A DNA stretch of 21,583 bases from a virus. Shown here in pieces: positions 183-19,222 of the stretch. The stretch lies in UHGV virus genome UHGV-0131581; one strand, 5' to 3'. The position numbers were made by a program, and so were the translations under genes. The notes under the pieces were generated by a model that worked only from the letters and a program-made list of their open reading frames with translations, did not search any database and was not told the DNA's origin. Numbering within the stretch: the first letter of the stretch is position 1; each line of letters begins with the position of its first letter.

Positions 183-1193
183 ATGTCGATGATGAAAGGT
201 TTCTCGAACGCGTTTCGGATTCCGGAGCTGCGAAAGAAAATTCTGATTACGCTCGGACTCGTGTTCGTGTGCCGCCTCGTGTCGCAGATTCCGACCCCAG
301 GCGTTGACTGGCGTGCCCTTCAGCAGGTGATTGAGACGGCGCGGCAGAATTCTGCCGGTGGCGGGTTGATTGACTGGCTTAGCGTCTTTACTGGTGGTGC
401 TCTCGGGCAGTGCGCAATTGGCTTTCTGTCCATCTGGCCTTACATCTCGGCGCAGATCGTGATTCAGCTTCTTTCGTCTGTCATTCCGTCGCTTCAGAAG
501 TTGAAGAAGGATGGTGAATCTGGACGCCAGCAGCTTGCGCAGATTACACGTTATCTGACGATTGTGCTCTGCGTGGTTCAGTCGTGGGGCATTGCGACGA
601 TGCTCAGCCATCCGGGAGCTCTCGGTCAGGCCTTTGCGGGTGTGAATCTTGTCGTCAATCCTGGGCTTGGGTTCCATCTGATGACGGTCATTGGTATGAC
701 GTCTGCCGCGCTTTTTGTCATGTGGCTTGCTGATCAGATTACGACGTTTGGCGTTGGTAATGGTGCGTCTCTGATTATTATGGTTAACATCACGTCGCGC
801 CTTCCGGACGCATTGATTAGTGCCTGGGAACGTTACTTTGGTTTGGCCGGTGTTCAAGCCTCGGCTCCCATTGCTGAATTGCCCGTGCTGATTGGGTTCT
901 TCCTGCTCGTTGTAATGGGTACGGTGATGCTGACTCAGGGTGTGCGCACAATTGGATTATCGCTCCCGGATTGTTTATTGCTGAAGGCCACAAGGATAAC
1001 GTGCCTGGTAGTCGGTTTTGCTGTGAATGCGGTGCGCGTGAGTGGGACGTTCAGAAATGACCAGCATCTTATTTATCTGGGTATTGTCCGCAGGCCAGAT
1101 GCAACTAGCGGCATCAGAAACGTTTTACTCGATGGAGGCGTGCCAGTCAGCGGCACGCGCCGCGGAGAACGCACACTTCCTGTTTCAGGGTGA
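183..1193 (+). CDS. SecY-like translocon homolog; SecY homology covers about the first 255 residues (nt 183-950), C-terminal ~80 residues unrelated (truncated, fused or decayed)
   Basis: Translation carries SecY signature blocks: FTGGALGQCAIGFLSIWPYISAQIVIQLL, KKDGESGRQQLAQITRY, VMWLADQITTFGVGNGASLII (E. coli SecY: [67 protein letters not shown]). After about LTQGVR no frame shows convincing SecY similarity. ORF is 336 aa versus about 440 for SecY. Confidence 0.6.
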   Translation: MSMMKGFSNAFRIPELRKKILITLGLVFVCRLVSQIPTPGVDWRALQQVIETARQNSAGGGLIDWLSVFTGGALGQCAIGFLSIWPYISAQIVIQLLSSVIPSLQKLKKDGESGRQQLAQITRYLTIVLCVVQSWGIATMLSHPGALGQAFAGVNLVVNPGLGFHLMTVIGMTSAALFVMWLADQITTFGVGNGASLIIMVNITSRLPDALISAWERYFGLAGVQASAPIAELPVLIGFFLLVVMGTVMLTQGVRTIGLSLPDCLLLKATRITCLVVGFAVNAVRVSGTFRNDQHLIYLGIVRRPDATSGIRNVLLDGGVPVSGTRRGERTLPVSG

Positions 1194-1262: not shown

Positions 1263-1442
1263 ATGGTACAGAGATACTTATTCCAGGGTGGTTTTGTAAC
1301 CCCGTGTGATGAAGGACACTGGGTCTTATATAACGATTATGTGAAACTAGAAGCCGAGTTACAGAAATACAAAGACCAGTTCCCGGATTACGTCGAGTGC
1401 GCGAACTGCGGATCAATTACACATGTGGAAGGGGTGGAGTGA
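1263..1442 (+). CDS. Small Cys-containing hypothetical protein (59 aa, possible zinc-ribbon)
   Basis: ATG 1263 preceded by AGGAGAAG (1250-1257); Cys at PCDEGH and CANCG; stop overlaps the next start (TGATG). Confidence 0.5.
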   Translation: MVQRYLFQGGFVTPCDEGHWVLYNDYVKLEAELQKYKDQFPDYVECANCGSITHVEGVE

Positions 1443-1735
1443 TGTCTCTTGCAACTGACATCCTGGAACGAAGCGGCCTTGCGCCGCTGTCACCGAGAGC
1501 TAAAACACAGATATACAAGCGTCGCCGTAATGCGCTGTACCCTGAGATTCAGGCCAGGCGCAAAGCTGTCCGCGCCTGCGGATTCCAGAACGGTAAGGCC
1601 GTGAATCTCGGTGAGTTCAAAACACAGGAACGTGCGGCTATAGCTAATCGGCTATTTAATTACTGGAAATCGCTGGGATACGATGATATTCCAACGAAAC
1701 CGCAGAGACGACAATACATCTGGCGTCATAAATAA
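1442..1735 (+). CDS. Hypothetical basic protein (98 aa)
   Basis: ATG 1442 overlaps the upstream stop by 1 nt (translational coupling); Arg/Lys-rich. The track's longer ORF from 1397 is treated as an N-terminal over-extension. Confidence 0.5.
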   Translation: MSLATDILERSGLAPLSPRAKTQIYKRRRNALYPEIQARRKAVRACGFQNGKAVNLGEFKTQERAAIANRLFNYWKSLGYDDIPTKPQRRQYIWRHK

Positions 1736-1765
1736 ACCGTTATTAAGATAATTCCTAACCGTGCT

Positions 1766-1805
1766 ATCCTCCAGTTACTGCATACTTAATACGCACCTGG
1801 AGGAT
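1766..1805 (+). promoter_or_regulatory. Stem-loop sequestering the holin Shine-Dalgarno
   Basis: Perfect 9-bp inverted repeat ATCCTCCAG (1766-1774) / CTGGAGGAT (1797-1805) with a 22-nt loop; the 3' arm contains GGAGGA, the RBS for the TTG start at 1811. Confidence 0.5.
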
Positions 1806-1810
1806 TCATC

Positions 1811-2119
1811 TTGGATAAATTTACTGAAACAGTGACAGGCTGGCTTCTCGCCGCCGCGCTAGCCGGAGGGGTTATCGGACTACGACAACATAAGTCTGTT
1901 ATTTCCGGCCCTATCGACGGATTCTGCTTTATCGCAACTGGCTTCACCTGCGCCGTATTTGGTGCACCTCTCGCAGCTCAATGGTTTGGCATCACGGGCG
2001 ACCGTGAAATCGCTGGCCTGGGCTTTATCATCGCTGTTCTCTGGATGCCTATCTATTCCCGTCTCTCCAGTATCGTTGCCGGAGAATACATCGCACGTCG
2101 AGGAGGCACAGATGAATGA
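1811..2119 (+). CDS. Holin-like membrane protein (102 aa, TTG start)
   Basis: Small protein with hydrophobic helices (WLLAAALAGGVIGL, FCFIATGFTCAVFGAPLAA, GLGFIIAVLWMPIY) and charged C-terminus, immediately upstream of the endolysin; GGAGGA RBS 7 nt before TTG. Confidence 0.55.
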   Translation: MDKFTETVTGWLLAAALAGGVIGLRQHKSVISGPIDGFCFIATGFTCAVFGAPLAAQWFGITGDREIAGLGFIIAVLWMPIYSRLSSIVAGEYIARRGGTDE

Positions 2120-2384
2120 GTTATTCTGGTTCGGCGGTATGCTGGCCATCGGGGGCACATCGCTATTTAATGTATATCACCCCAGCGTTGACGACGGGTT
2201 ATTCGGTCGTGTGCTCTATATCCTGACCGCTATCGTCTGCGCTGCCGGATGTATCCACCTGTTACAGGGCAGCATGTCATCGACGCTGCCTGAAACATTA
2301 ATCACATTAGTTGCGCTGCGTCAGATTCGTCAGGCGTGGCTGTCATACGGAGGACATAAGCGTGTCTCGAAATATTTCAGATAA
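2112..2384 (+). CDS. Second holin/antiholin-like membrane protein (90 aa, 2 predicted TM)
   Basis: ATG 2112 preceded by AGGAGG (2101-2106); hydrophobic segments FWFGGMLAIGGTSLF and VLYILTAIVCAAGCIHLL; overlaps both neighbours. The track ORF from 1959 is treated as an over-extension. Confidence 0.5.
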   Translation: MNELFWFGGMLAIGGTSLFNVYHPSVDDGLFGRVLYILTAIVCAAGCIHLLQGSMSSTLPETLITLVALRQIRQAWLSYGGHKRVSKYFR

Positions 2385-2850
2385 TGGGTTGCATTTCACC
2401 GCTGCATTTGAGGGATTCCGTGGAACTGCGTATCGTGCTACACCGAGCGAGAAGTACCTGACTATTGGGTACGGTCATTACGGGCCGGACGTGACTCCAG
2501 GCAAGACCATCACCCAAGGACAAGGCCTCCTGTTACTGAACCGTGATATGGCTAAGGCCGTAGCTGCGGTTGATGCGGCAGCACACCATTCATTGACACA
2601 GGCGCAGTTCGACGCCGTGTGCGACCTGGTCTATAACGCAGGTGCGGGTGTTATCGCGGCTACTACCGGCACCGGTAAGGCACTGCGCTCCGGTGATACC
2701 GCGACGTTACGGACCAAGCTGTCGCTGTTCATTAACCAGAACGGTAAACCATTACTTGGTCTGCGTCGCCGTACCGCTGGTCGCCTGGCACTGTTTGGCG
2801 GTAAACCGTGGCAAGAGGCGGAGGCTATTGGGCGCGCGGTGAAAGGTTGA
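2362..2850 (+). CDS. Endolysin, glycoside hydrolase family 24 (T4/P22-type lysozyme)
   Basis: GLHFTAAFEGFRGTAYRATPSEKYLTIGYGHYG and QFDAVCDLVYNAGAG ... RRRTAGRLALF are typical GH24 lysozyme blocks. Probable GTG start at 2362 with GGAGGA at 2349-2354; track start 2311 is less likely. Confidence 0.85.
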   Translation: MSRNISDNGLHFTAAFEGFRGTAYRATPSEKYLTIGYGHYGPDVTPGKTITQGQGLLLLNRDMAKAVAAVDAAAHHSLTQAQFDAVCDLVYNAGAGVIAATTGTGKALRSGDTATLRTKLSLFINQNGKPLLGLRRRTAGRLALFGGKPWQEAEAIGRAVKG

Positions 2851-2914
2851 CACCTAAGACCAATCTGACGATACTTAAATCACCTCCTGTTCCATCCCTC
2901 TACTCTCCAGTTTT

Positions 2915-2948
2915 ATCCCGGCCCTGACCCAGCCGGGATTTTTTTTAT
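2915..2948 (+). terminator. Rho-independent terminator after the endolysin gene
   Basis: ATCCCGGC (2915-2922), 9-nt loop, GCCGGGAT (2932-2939), then T8. Confidence 0.7.
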
Positions 2949-2968
2949 CTATTTTCTGTAATGACTAG

Positions 2969-2997
2969 TTGACTATTACTCTTACACCAATTATATT
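2969..2997 (+). promoter_or_regulatory. sigma70-type promoter (TTGACT, 17-nt spacer, TATATT) driving the small-ORF cluster
   Basis: TTGACT at 2969-2974 and TATATT at 2992-2997. Confidence 0.55.
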
Positions 2998-3104
2998 TAC
3001 TTCATCGATAACGAGAACGGAGTAGAGAAGATGAGTAACTTCCATAACGAACATGTGATGCAGTTCTACCGCAATAATCTGAAAACTAAAGGAGTGTTTG
3101 GAAA

Positions 3105-3254
3105 ATGAAAATCACAGATATCGAGGCATTCGAAGACGCACAACTGATGGCACGTATTGCCGTTAGTAACCTGGGTGGAAACATTCCTGCGGAGTGGTTC
3201 TGGTCCGCAGCGATGAAGGCGCTTAAAGCAGCTTATGCAGGAGAGAAGAAATGA
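3105..3254 (+). CDS. Small hypothetical protein (49 aa)
   Basis: ATG 3105 preceded by AAAGGAG; translates [49 protein letters not shown]; stop overlaps next start (ATGA). Below the ORF-track length cutoff. A 25-codon ORF (3031-3108) upstream is also coupled by ATGA. Confidence 0.45.
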
Positions 3255-4919: not shown

Positions 4920-5465
4920 ATGAAGCTGAAACTTAAGCAGCCATCTCCAGAGGTGGTGCAAGCTGCACATGAAGAAGCTGTTAGCGCAAACCGTCGCCGT
5001 AAACGGCCACGCGGTAAACAGAGCCTTTATCAATCATCCCGTAATTCCGCTGCGTTGTGGGACCCGGACTATTGTGACGAATTGATTCGTTTCTTCGACC
5101 GCACGTCATGGGAACTTGTGCCTACGTCTAAGGGCGACGAACGCCCGCTGATTCAGGATAAGCCACCGTCACTGGCCCGCTTCGCCTTACATATCGGCGT
5201 CACTATCCCGATTATCAAGCTGTGGCTGCGCGAGATTCCCGCATTTGCAGAAGCCTATGAAACGGCGCAGGCACTGGAAGAGGCATACTTCACTGAGACA
5301 GGCGCGGTGGGCATATCCGCTACGTTTGCCGCTGCGAAGCTAGGTCTTGGCAAAGAGAAACCGGTTGAATCCACCGAAGAAACAGCACCGACTGAGATTA
5401 TTTTCAGTGTCGCAGAGCCTGTAGGTAAAATCGTAACAACGAACATGGGCGAGGTAGAGGAATGA
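4920..5465 (+). CDS. Terminase small subunit (putative)
   Basis: Immediately upstream of and ATGA-coupled to the large terminase gene; basic N-terminus and HTH-like PSLARFALHIGVTIPIIKLWLREIPAFAEAYE; AAGGGGA RBS before ATG 4920. Track GTG start 4881 is possible but less likely. Confidence 0.5.
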   Translation: MKLKLKQPSPEVVQAAHEEAVSANRRRKRPRGKQSLYQSSRNSAALWDPDYCDELIRFFDRTSWELVPTSKGDERPLIQDKPPSLARFALHIGVTIPIIKLWLREIPAFAEAYETAQALEEAYFTETGAVGISATFAAAKLGLGKEKPVESTEETAPTEIIFSVAEPVGKIVTTNMGEVEE

Positions 5466-8206: not shown

Positions 8207-8242
8207 GTATGCTTATAGCTCCGAAAGGGGCTTTCTTATAGT

Positions 8243-9319
8243 ATGCTATTAACTTTAGCGCCACAGGGTTTATCTATGAGCTTACTTACATCCCTAATCA
8301 GCCACCAGATATGGCTGCAACGCACCGCATCCGGTGAAGTGAAAGACCTTGCGCCGTTTCTTCAGGAAATGCGGGACGAAATCAAACGGCAGGTGCTGTT
8401 ATTCGGTGACGACGGGCGAAGCACCGCGCGACTAAATAAACTGTTACGCGACCTTGAAGAAGCATTAACAGGACTTACTGGTGACTGGCGGACAAAGCTG
8501 ATAGAAGACCTCAAAGAACTGGCAGCGTACGAGGCTGAGTGGAACGTAAAGACTCTGACCACTAACGTAAATGGGGAATTTGTTACGCCTACTGCCGAGC
8601 AAGTGTGGGCCGCCGCCGAGTTTCAACCTCTGGCGTTGAACGACAAGCCTGTTGACTTCACTAAGCTGATGGACGGCTGGGGTGAAACAGAAGTCGCGCG
8701 CCTTGTAACCGGCGTTAAGATGGGTTTCGTACAAGGTCAAACCACACGGCAGATTGTTAAAAGCGTAGTCGGCGCGGGCGGACTGGCCGACATCTCTGAG
8801 CGCAACGCAGCTACGGTAATACGTACTGCGCTGTCTCACGTGTCCAACGAAGCCCGTAACGAGACGTACCGCCAGAACGACGACATCATCGAGAAGTACG
8901 AGTGGGTGTCAACGCTGGACAGCCGTACCAGTACGATTTGCAGAGCCAGAGACGGAATGACATGGGAAATTGGTAAAGGGCCGATGCCTCCAGCCCATCC
9001 GAATTGTCGGTCGTGCACGGCCCCGGTAATCAGTTCAGAGTTCGACTTCCTCGATAAAGGCGCAAAACGTGCGGCTAAGGGTGCGGACGGCGGTACTCAG
9101 GTAAGCGCGGACACCACTTACTACGAGTTCCTGAAACAACAACCGGCATGGTTTATTGATGAAGCTCTCGGCCCGGTTCGCGGTAAGATTTTCCGCAACA
9201 GCGGTATATCGCCGGAAGAGTTTCGCGTAATATCTGTAGATGGTTTCGGGAATCCGCTGACACTTAAGCAGATGGCGGAACTCGATAAACGTGTTGCTGA
9301 TTATCTGAAAGGGGATTAA
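8243..9319 (+). CDS. Head morphogenesis protein (Mu F / SPP1 gp7-like minor head protein)
   Basis: ATVIRTALSHVSNEARNETYRQ ... WVSTLDSRTSTICRARDGMTW ... PPAHPNCRSCT matches the Mu-F-like domain pattern; position after portal. Start could be ATG 8243 or ATG 8276. Confidence 0.75.
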   Translation: MLLTLAPQGLSMSLLTSLISHQIWLQRTASGEVKDLAPFLQEMRDEIKRQVLLFGDDGRSTARLNKLLRDLEEALTGLTGDWRTKLIEDLKELAAYEAEWNVKTLTTNVNGEFVTPTAEQVWAAAEFQPLALNDKPVDFTKLMDGWGETEVARLVTGVKMGFVQGQTTRQIVKSVVGAGGLADISERNAATVIRTALSHVSNEARNETYRQNDDIIEKYEWVSTLDSRTSTICRARDGMTWEIGKGPMPPAHPNCRSCTAPVISSEFDFLDKGAKRAAKGADGGTQVSADTTYYEFLKQQPAWFIDEALGPVRGKIFRNSGISPEEFRVISVDGFGNPLTLKQMAELDKRVADYLKGD

Positions 9320-15645: not shown

Positions 15646-16814
15646 ATATGGCTACAACTCCTTTTAAGGGCGCGAATACCGCGCAATTCTATGTGGCGGA
15701 AGTGACCCCGGGCGTAACACCTGATAACCCGGTCTGGTCGCCGTTGCGCAACACAGGCGGTGTTCCCGCCGTTACCCGCGACACGCTGGCCTCCAACGAA
15801 CTGGACGGCAGCCGTGAAACTACATCCATCCGCACCGGTAACAGGCAGGTTAGCGGGGAATACGCAATTGAGCTTAGCTCGAAAAGCCAGGACGACTGGC
15901 TGGCTGGCGCTTTAGGCTCTACGTGGCAGTCAGGGGCTTCTCTGTCAGGGTTATCGATTACCGTTGCACCGGCGGGTAAGACGTTCACCCGTGCTGATGG
16001 TAGCTTTATTACCGACGGCGTTGAAGTGGGCGACCTGATTGCGTTTACCGACTTAACGGGCGACAACGCTAAGCCGTTTATCGTTACTGCGGTAGAGGCA
16101 CTGGCGGTAACAGGTGCAGGTATCCAGCACACTCTTACCGCGGAGACTGTCACTACCGCGGCCAAAACTGGAGATAAACTGGAAACCGGTAACCAATGTA
16201 AGACGTTCTCTATTCTCACCTGGTACAAAGGCCAGTGCGGAGGGGCCAGTGTATATACGCTGACCAAAGGCGTTGAAGTTTCGGGTTTTACCGTTGAACA
16301 GGCAGTTAATGCGATGGTAACTGGCAGCTTCCCGTTCATCGGTCGCAGTCAGGAGATTCTCACCGAGCAGCCGTCCGGTTCCGACTTCTCTTCCGTTACG
16401 TTTGGTGACGAGCCGTTCTCCTCGGTTGACGTTTCTGTGTTCGATGGGTCTACGCCGTTGCGTTGCGACAGTCTGACCATCACTAACGACAACAGCGCGT
16501 CCGCACAGTTCGAACTCGGCAACACTAACGTGGCCTTTGTGGAACGTAGCCGCGCAGCTAACACATTCTCTATCTCCGGCAAACTGTACGACATGGCTAT
16601 GATTCAGAAGTTTATCAACGAACAGCAGGTAGAGATTAACTCTATTCTGGCTGGGGTAAACGGTGCTATGTCTTTCAGTTTGAAACGCGCAGAGCTTACG
16701 GCGGTTACGCCAGAGATTGGCGGACCTGAGTCAATCACTCAGTCCATTGAAGGACAGTCCACAGGCAATCAATATCAATCATCTATCGTAATTCAACGTA
16801 TTAGTTACGCGTAA
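15642..16814 (+). CDS. Major tail protein
   Basis: 390-aa Thr/Ser/Gly-rich protein preceding the chaperone and tape-measure genes and followed by a strong terminator. Synteny-based. Confidence 0.6.
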   Translation: MNMATTPFKGANTAQFYVAEVTPGVTPDNPVWSPLRNTGGVPAVTRDTLASNELDGSRETTSIRTGNRQVSGEYAIELSSKSQDDWLAGALGSTWQSGASLSGLSITVAPAGKTFTRADGSFITDGVEVGDLIAFTDLTGDNAKPFIVTAVEALAVTGAGIQHTLTAETVTTAAKTGDKLETGNQCKTFSILTWYKGQCGGASVYTLTKGVEVSGFTVEQAVNAMVTGSFPFIGRSQEILTEQPSGSDFSSVTFGDEPFSSVDVSVFDGSTPLRCDSLTITNDNSASAQFELGNTNVAFVERSRAANTFSISGKLYDMAMIQKFINEQQVEINSILAGVNGAMSFSLKRAELTAVTPEIGGPESITQSIEGQSTGNQYQSSIVIQRISYA

Positions 16815-16816
16815 GG

Positions 16817-16840
16817 AAAAGGCCCCGAAAGGGGCCTTTT
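16817..16840. terminator. Bidirectional rho-independent terminator between convergent genes
   Basis: AAAAGGCCCC-GAAA-GGGGCCTTTT: a GC stem with GNRA-type loop flanked by A-run and T-run, so it can terminate from either direction. Confidence 0.8.
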
Positions 16841-16841
16841 C

Positions 16842-17072
16842 TTACTCATCAATATTGCTTCGGTATTCCCGCAACTTCTCCAGACTTTCAATTGCTTCTG
16901 CTAAGTCGGTTACGGTGTCCTTGTGCCCACGTAAACCCATGCACAATAGCTTCTTCAATGCGTGCTGTAACGCCGGGTCGCGGATGTCGAAGGCGCGCAG
17001 CACATCGTAAACGTCTACGGTCATAGTGCTGCCGTGAGTGTTTGTCATTGTGCGGTTGTATTTTGAAGTCAT
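16842..17072 (-). CDS. Small hypothetical protein (76 aa)
   Basis: Minus-strand ORF ATGA-coupled to the HNH gene; contains DVYDVLRAFDIRDPALQHALKKLL. I do not recognise the family with certainty. Confidence 0.5.
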   Translation of the reverse strand: MTSKYNRTMTNTHGSTMTVDVYDVLRAFDIRDPALQHALKKLLCMGLRGHKDTVTDLAEAIESLEKLREYRSNIDE

Positions 17073-19087: not shown

Positions 19088-19222
19088 GTTACAGGTGAAT
19101 AGTACCCTATTATATTGGGGTGTGCAAGTAGTGTGCTAGAATAAGTTTGCGCCTAGTGTCGCACACGAAAAGCGGGTGGTTCCCGTCTGGCGCATTTCCC
19201 TTAACCTGTAACCTCTTAACCA
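19088..19222 (+). promoter_or_regulatory. Divergent promoter/operator region between the minus-strand island and the tail chaperone gene
   Basis: GTTACA (19088-19093), 17 nt, TATATT (19111-19116); GTGTGC direct repeats at 19120 and 19131 with inverted copy GCACAC at 19162-19167; TTAACC-TG-TAACC-TC-TTAACC at 19199-19222. Confidence 0.35.

Follow-up and report, generated by a model that had tools for sequence, protein, structure and literature searches.

In the RNA phages MS2 and f2, the start of the lysis gene L lies locked within a hairpin, and ribosomes that terminate at the coat gene activate it, and in secM-secA and ermC a sequestered downstream Shine-Dalgarno sequence (SD) is unmasked by a leader open reading frame (ORF) that crosses the 5′ arm of the hairpin. 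In phage T4, the SD or start codon of gene e, as well as those of soc, 49, and I-TevI, is buried in a helix on read-in transcripts; such inhibitory hairpins in the translation initiation region (TIR) cut lysozyme synthesis by about 100-fold, and premature lysis is prevented (PMC3014915). In phage lambda, a stem-loop upstream of S partitions initiation between two in-frame starts, for the antiholin S107 and the holin S105; the structure (nucleotides [nt] −21 to −7) masks just the SD of Met1 and sets the S107:S105 ratio (bioRxiv 10.1101/2025.05.14.654169). Here we analyzed a stretch of 21,583 nt from the virus genome UHGV-0131581 (the whole of which is called the window below) and describe a hairpin at 1766-1805 that encloses the SD of the first holin-like gene in the lysis cassette. 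We put at roughly 0.6 the probability that this hairpin works in cis as a throttle on translation of the first lysis gene, one that would hold holin synthesis low and help to set the time of lysis. Control by SD sequestration is already a known kind; what is new is its occurrence in the Guernseyvirinae, for which no description of such a lock before a holin gene was found in the literature searched.

The phage part of the window begins at position 938 and belongs to a Kagunavirus-like siphophage (Guernseyvirinae); segment 1397-2900 of it matched 148 phage records by megablast, most of them Escherichia Kagunavirus with 85-92% identity. The gene following the hairpin, holin-like gene 1, is placed by its profile match in phrog_2359, at the head of a holin-holin-endolysin cassette. 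Annotations of relatives call the same ORF a holin with the same TTG start, labeled either as class II holin-like or as an antiholin/holin with three transmembrane domains, and searches of Pfam and NCBIfam gave no family match for this gene.

Occlusion of the first holin gene's ribosome-binding site

A first-pass annotation, made from the letters of the window, had described a perfect 9-bp stem with a 22-nt loop. A repeat search found this description exact to the base, with the arms 1766-1774 and 1797-1805 being complementary at 9 of 9 positions and 22 nt lying between them. The GGAGGA serving the holin TTG start was also rightly placed inside the 3′ arm; it occupies 1799-1804 and is separated from the TTG (1811-1813) by the 6-nt spacer TTCATC (1805-1810). 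The folding-energy calculation that the annotation had proposed came out in the same direction: the 48-nt hairpin RNA has an energy of −14.3 kcal/mol (z score, −4.15), and none of 200 shuffles was equally stable. The helix is the minimum-free-energy pairing in sequence contexts of 95, 300, and 678 nt, across which the probability of the holin SD being unpaired, P(unpaired), is 0.001 to 0.013. The favored helix covers the complete SD, which is what a hairpin sequestering this site has to do. The duplex of this SD with the anti-SD amounts to −9.3 kcal/mol. In addition, RNAalifold predicted short outer helices at 1761-1763/1807-1809 and 1753-1755/1813-1815, and these two would enclose the start codon too.

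An inverted repeat of this size is not significant by itself. In the window, arms of 9 bp or more are perfectly complementary across a 3- to 30-nt loop at two places, namely the holin hairpin and a probable terminator at 16816-16841, versus 2.6 ± 2.1 in dinucleotide shuffles. The hairpin is non-random because its placement over the first lysis gene's SD is exact and because it is conserved. Its SD shows a mean P(unpaired) of 0.001, which is the lowest among 29 phage genes (the next value is 0.167 and the median is ~0.45). The opening cost of the holin TIR (−15 to +5) was computed as 15.4 kcal/mol, the second highest among 30 plus-strand starts, and the highest cost belongs to a gene at 5462 that overlaps its upstream gene (4920-5465). 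Judged from this layout, the gene at 5462 can be opened through translational coupling, whereas the holin gene cannot: the upstream stop codon (1733-1735) lies 31 nt before the stem, so ribosomes translating the upstream gene cannot unwind the hairpin.

Other candidate signals at the site were rejected. An RNA thermometer was excluded, since the P(unpaired) of the SD does not exceed 0.02 between 25 and 45°C and no melting is predicted. A promoter scan reported no sigma-70 promoter at the hairpin, and an Rfam search of 1300-3200 (E ≤ 10) gave no match on it, the hits being confined to terminator-like matches at 2876-2946. A pseudoknot between 1741-1747 (TATTAAG) and loop positions 1785-1791 (CTTAATA), which form a 7-bp inverted repeat, shows no double-sided changes, is broken in L026/L072 and in L041, and is A/U rich; we attributed it to chance. 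The palindrome AATAGnnnnCTATT, given as a PHIRE "phage promoter" of Kagunaviruses in the supplements of PMC9825357 and PMC7203180, has one nearby match at 1731-1744 with two mismatches, which is at chance level.

Conservation of the hairpin within and beyond Kagunavirus

Conservation was analyzed on 120 loci, drawn from phages in GenBank and from IMG/VR, metagenomes, and Logan assemblies, which contain 27 different sequence variants of the 84-nt segment surrounding the hairpin; nucleotide diversity (π) was computed on the 71 non-identical loci. The values of π were 0.021 for the 5′ arm, 0.035 for the loop, 0.006 for the 3′ arm, and 0.011 for 1806-1813, while those of the holin codons were 0.336 at third and 0.032 at second positions, and the TTG start showed no variation. 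The non-coding hairpin is constrained as strongly as second codon positions, and there is no other obvious reason for the conservation of the 5′ arm. Variants in this arm are limited to T1767C (one locus), C1772T, which leaves a G·U pair, and A1773G, which gives a G·U pair or, together with T1798C, a G-C pair. Pair 1773/1798 is A-U in 22 variants, G·U in three, A·C in one (L078), and G-C in one (L043), the last of which is a true compensatory change, and pair 1772/1799 is either C-G or U·G. Over the 27-variant alignment, 98.8% of the cells are paired, with one double change and four wobble changes. An SD-sequestering hairpin was predicted in all 27 variants, at −9.6 to −21.1 kcal/mol. The stem is extended by changes at the edge of the loop in two groups, PK1/LSPA1 and L026/L072, and L041, the holin of which is 66% identical, has an unrelated 9-nt loop, yet its stem comprises 12 bp with an energy of −13.8 kcal/mol.

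The flanks of the hairpin are conserved as well. Homology restarts at ~1741 whichever of three genes lies upstream, namely the phrog_9632 gene present in the window, an HslV-like protease gene, which precedes the holin in many relatives, or another gene. Immediately outside the invariant block 1765-1836, diversity is tenfold higher in the same genomes. Within the holin gene, third-position π is 0.038 for codons 2-8 versus 0.362 for codons 9-102, a difference of about tenfold. A lambda-like intragenic hairpin predicted at 1821-1835 (6 bp) was rejected because all three variants found there (1825, 1831, and 1833) break pairs, and it does not account for the low synonymous diversity of codons 2-8.

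Jerseyvirus, Cornellvirus, and the group of loci L183-L190 carry at the head of the cassette a divergent orthologous holin (22% identity; BLASTP, 3e-08; same phrog_2359). The BLASTP match and the PHROG assignment rule out that the Jerseyvirus holin is unrelated, and because it is a divergent orthologue, the comparison between genera concerns orthologous leaders and not convergence. The leaders of these three lineages are unalignable with that of Kagunavirus, and in each of them a 9- to 13-bp hairpin includes GGAG or GGGGG in its 3′ arm (Table 1). When nine arm positions, anchored on the SD by hand, were aligned over ten distinct arm pairs, five of the nine pairs changed on both sides, and the covariation score was reached by 0 of 500 shuffles; 88.9% of the cells were paired, versus 32-52% with the partner slid. 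We consider this retention of structure despite sequence turnover at an orthologous place to be the strongest argument that selection acts on SD sequestration itself. Across the Guernseyvirinae, the SD of the orthologous first holin would sit in the 3′ arm of a hairpin by the same design built from different sequences, and the finding of one architecture in four lineages with unalignable leaders suggests that selection favors restraint of holin translation.

The comparison between genera also bears on a different function, in which the hairpin would mainly act on transcription or RNA stability, as a partial terminator, an attenuator, or a protective stem, and the overlap with the SD would be secondary. 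In Jerseyvirus and the L184 group, the counterpart hairpin runs into a U7 or U5 tract and resembles an intrinsic terminator (−20 to −28 kcal/mol) situated between the SD and the start codon, and the hairpin of the window lies at a boundary between gene modules, as would be expected from such a role. We regard this function as quite improbable for the window hairpin, which was not reported by the terminator scan and which, with its 22-nt loop, its closing A-U pairs, and a tail, UCAUCUUG, holding 4 U in 8, does not have the makeup of an intrinsic terminator. The Cornellvirus version is without a U tract as well, and the SD inside the 3′ arm is the sole feature common to all four lineages.

It is also unlikely, in our estimate, that the hairpin has no regulatory role and is a chance complement of a strong SD, lying in a ~90-bp junction that represents a recently shared recombination block between phage modules. 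Such an origin would agree with the ~2.6 perfect 9-bp inverted repeats expected per window and with a block 1765-1836 that is nearly invariant, loop included, beyond the needs of pairing; the block is common to phages with three different upstream genes, and a relic of it survives in Salmonella phage VT223. It agrees less well with L041 and L043, which keep or compensate the arms while the loop and flanks change, or with the three other lineages, which have unrelated leaders and the same architecture, and the tenfold rise in diversity outside the block fits selection better than a recombination sweep of 70 nt. Taken together, the comparisons indicated that the SD-sequestering hairpin before the first holin gene is real and selected. 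Its structure, its dominance of the ensemble, the occlusion of the SD, its extreme position among the phage genes, its conservation, and the compensatory changes were all computed here.

The relic in VT223, a Jerseyvirus (L033), spans 1501-1717 of that locus, where the Kagunavirus hairpin has been retained at 92.5% identity along with ~21 codons from the start of the holin gene. The lowermost base pair of its stem is broken, and the GTG of the upstream ORF (uORF) considered below has become GCG. The relic forms a 48-amino-acid (aa) ORF directly upstream of VT223's own Jersey-type hairpin and holin and, judging from this arrangement, is a fossil of module exchange.

Proposed throttling of holin translation, and the lysis cassette

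In the mechanism that we propose, the hairpin would sit on the polycistronic mRNA of the lysis cassette, and its 5′ arm, as an anti-SD mimic (AUCCUCC), would pair with GGAGGA, the strong SD that serves holin-like gene 1. The 30S subunits would bind just the rare open form. The lock and the weak, invariant TTG start would keep translation of the first lysis protein very low on mRNA that is already present, and this restraint would help to set the time of lysis. Of the translational control of lysis that the first-pass annotation had put forward, the structural part held up, in that the structure is real and thermodynamically dominant and masks the whole SD, and its pairing is apparently under selection; the lowered holin translation and the effect on lysis timing would follow from established knowledge of TIR structure. 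In RNA sequencing of a Kagunavirus, which assigned classes at the gene level, the lysozyme belongs to the "middle" class together with structural genes (PMC12645636), and transcription in this class fits a need for post-transcriptional restraint.

Several points weigh against this interpretation. The block 1765-1836 is without common polymorphism, loop included, and pairing alone leaves the conservation of the loop and codons 2-8 unexplained; the 3′ arm is constrained by its SD function anyway. Covariation measures within Kagunavirus were indistinguishable from those of shuffles, with five of nine pairs invariant and one double change, and the shuffle controls lacked significance because these five pairs never vary. 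Registration by hand on the SD biases the alignment between genera towards structure. The evidence that pairing has been maintained in evolution is thus consistent but weak within the genus alone, and beyond it consists of double changes on a hand-registered alignment. Holin homologues with 30-44% identity (L122-L161, from other phage groups) are without an SD lock and have a terminator followed by a free, weak SD, from which we conclude that the SD-lock design is specific to the subfamily Guernseyvirinae. No prophage or bacterial copy of the holin gene was found among 185,579 reference genomes/species. Finally, a lock of −14 kcal/mol would permit almost no translation at equilibrium, yet the gene is conserved, and a part of the mechanism is therefore missing from the proposal.

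The strength of the lock, with a probability of being open near 1e-3, suggests that something helps to open it. A possible uORF of 24 codons begins at GTG 1761, reads through the 5′ arm and the loop, passes the holin start in a different frame, and ends 22 nt beyond that start at TGA 1835; its extent nearly matches the invariant block. The start of this uORF is kept in 27 of 27 variants, being ATG in L041, and relatives with the protease gene have its stop codon 9 nt ahead of the GTG. In Jerseyvirus, a 6-codon mini-ORF (MLISEG/W) covers exactly the 5′ arm of its hairpin. Rare ribosomes that initiate on the uORF, or that reinitiate after the upstream gene, could unzip the hairpin and pass the freed SD or TTG to a new initiation event. 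We hold such active opening to be doubtful. The uORF is without an SD, varies from 11 to 40 codons among the variants, encodes a peptide that is not conserved, and is absent in Cornellvirus; an ORF of this kind is likely to occur by chance. If active opening did operate, holin synthesis would be a translational relay coupled to expression of the upstream gene, and lysis of the Guernseyvirinae would be timed by an SD lock gated by a leader ORF, an arrangement not described for holins. Opening through cleavage in the A/U-rich loop is pure conjecture.

The translated RNA could also be a different one, as for T4 gene e: read-through RNAs with the full hairpin would be silent, while RNAs from a weak promoter, starting near 1777, would lack the 5′ arm and be translated. 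This two-transcript switch would use TGcTATCCT (1762-1770), a weak extended −10-like motif overlapping the 5′ arm. The motif TGnTATCCT is conserved even in the most divergent relative, L041, and an RNA with its 5′ end at 1777 would leave the SD free of stable structure (−8.4 kcal/mol; z score, −0.09). T4 genes e, soc, 49, and I-TevI are documented to use this arrangement (PMC3014915), and −10-like hexamers lie just upstream of the hairpin elsewhere (TATACT in L184, GATAAT in Cornellvirus, and TATAAA in Jerseyvirus), although such hexamers are common in A/T-rich leaders. Set against this, the −10 element matches the consensus at just four of six positions and the −35 element at four of six at best, with a 16-nt spacer, and the promoter scan was silent. 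The spacing to the −35-like TTAAGA becomes 15 in L041, so that the geometry is not kept, and the evident promoters of the phage are near consensus (TTGACT-17-TATATT and TTGACA-17-GATACT). The resemblance may also be a by-product, since TATCCT is forced by complementarity to the SD. A switch of this type is in our opinion improbable, and we return to the throttle on the polycistronic cassette mRNA as the preferred reading.

If it holds, the consequences reach beyond the locus. Holin supply sets the lysis clock and hence the latent period, burst size, and fitness. The Guernseyvirinae (Kagunavirus and Jerseyvirus) are among the most often isolated therapy phages of E. coli and Salmonella, and their lysis control is unstudied; lysis timing could be tuned or probed by changing a few bases in the non-coding 9-nt arm.

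The first lysis gene is followed by a second holin-like gene and the endolysin, and the features of the region are listed in Table 1. Holin-like genes 1 and 2 overlap by 8 nt (ATGAATGA, 2112-2119), and holin-like gene 2 and the endolysin gene by 23 nt (2362-2384). These overlaps suggest translational coupling downstream of the locked first gene, though genes 2 and 3 have strong, accessible SDs of their own (GAGGAGG with a P(unpaired) of 0.62 for holin-like gene 2, and a P(unpaired) of 0.40 for the endolysin gene). The weak Rfam small RNA matches at 2902-2946 correspond to the terminator that closes the cassette.

Table 1. Features of the holin leader and lysis cassette in the window, and counterpart hairpins in other Guernseyvirinae
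Feature	Position	Strand	Description
Conserved upstream block	1741..1765	+	Homologous to the 3′ end and stop (TAA 1749-1751) of the HslV-like protease gene
Hairpin 5′ arm	1766..1774	+	ATCCTCCAG, anti-SD-like (AUCCUCC in RNA)
Hairpin loop	1775..1796	+	22 nt, A/U rich, weak internal 3-bp pairing
Hairpin 3′ arm	1797..1805	+	CTGGAGGAT, holds SD GGAGGA 1799-1804
Holin-like gene 1, first of the lysis cassette	1811..2119	+	TTG start, 102 aa, phrog_2359 "holin," 3.4e-29
Holin codons 2-8	1814..1836	+	Conserved synonymous sites, part of invariant block 1765-1836
Holin-like gene 2	2112..2384	+	ATG start, 90 aa, phrog_2508
Endolysin	2362..2850	+	GTG start, 162 aa, PF00959 phage lysozyme
Intrinsic terminator closing the lysis cassette	2915..2946	+	8-bp GC-rich stem, 9-nt loop, U7
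Jerseyvirus hairpin			AATCTCCGAAGG...CTTTCGGAGATT, 12-13 bp, then U6-7, then GTG
Cornellvirus hairpin			CTCCGTATGG...CTATACGGAG, 9-10 bp, no U tract
L184-group hairpin			CCCCCGAAT...ATTCGGGGG, 9 bp, then U5 and ATG
Hairpins in other genera	L033 1723-1764; L164/L165 ~320-366; L162/L163 ~305-349; L183-L190 ~262-300		

Directly after the cassette terminator lies a near-consensus promoter-like site (2969-2997, TTGACT-17-TATATT), which overlaps a PHIRE-type palindrome, ACTAGTTGACTATT. Copies of the palindrome AATAGnnnnCTATT were found at 19098-19111, 8237-8250, and 2964-2977. This palindrome is listed among the PHIRE "phage promoters" in Kagunavirus genome papers (PMC9825357 and PMC7203180); its count in the window at two mismatches is not above chance, and it looks more like an operator overlapping −10 elements than a promoter. 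A perfect 11-bp inverted repeat at 16815-16842 (GGAAAAGGCCCC GAAA GGGGCCTTTTCC-like), located where the plus-strand genes (ending at 16814) meet the minus-strand genes, is probably a bidirectional terminator.

The first 937 nt of the window are bacterial and comprise the 3′ end of smpB (frame 3, 3-131) and the 5′ half of secY from position 183 (TIGR00967, 3.3e-54; profile positions 1-219 of 414). A phage contig (L003) is 100% identical to the window from 938 on and carries a different sequence upstream of 938. By this comparison, the window is a chimeric join or a misassembly at 937/938. Since 1-937 is not phage DNA, the ORF 183-1193 (a 336-aa "SecY") is an artefactual fusion, and a strong promoter-like site inside the bacterial stretch (TTGAAA-18-TATAAT, 115-144) cannot define a phage transcription unit.

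Comparison with described systems

The locus shares with T4 gene e the burial of a lysis-gene SD in an intramolecular helix. It differs in that the T4 late promoters, which lie within the DNA of the 5′ strand, give transcripts without that arm, whereas the corresponding place here holds just the weak −10-like motif; furthermore, the regulated gene is a holin and not an endolysin gene, and the phage is an unrelated siphovirus.

With MS2 L, the likeness is that RNA structure at the start would keep translation of the lysis gene very low, with expression coming from rare opening. MS2 is an RNA phage with overlapping frames in which L is reached by termination and reinitiation, whereas the upstream stop codon here lies well before the stem, and an MS2-like relay would need the candidate uORF 1761-1835. 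The likeness to secM-secA and ermC is confined to this short uORF (GTG 1761 to TGA 1835), which crosses the 5′ arm in every Kagunavirus variant; it differs from those leaders in having no SD, a variable length, and an unconserved peptide, in its absence from Cornellvirus, and in carrying no known stalling signal.

The first-pass annotation had compared the hairpin in principle with the RNA structure upstream of lambda S ("sdi"). The comparison is apt insofar as a stem-loop immediately upstream of the holin gene overlaps an SD and would control access of ribosomes to it and, as in lambda, influence when lysis occurs. It does not extend to the dual start: the holin of the window begins M-D-K-F-T-E-T-V, the sole other in-frame start-like codon is a GTG at codon 8 that has no SD, and the start region is invariant in homologues. 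There is one TTG start, the sole SD of which lies entirely within a stem far more stable than that of lambda (9 bp, −14 kcal/mol), and the putative partner protein is encoded by a separate gene, the second holin-like gene. Thus, the analogy with lambda S is a loose one, and T4 gene e and MS2 L appear to be the closer counterparts of the hairpin before the first holin gene.

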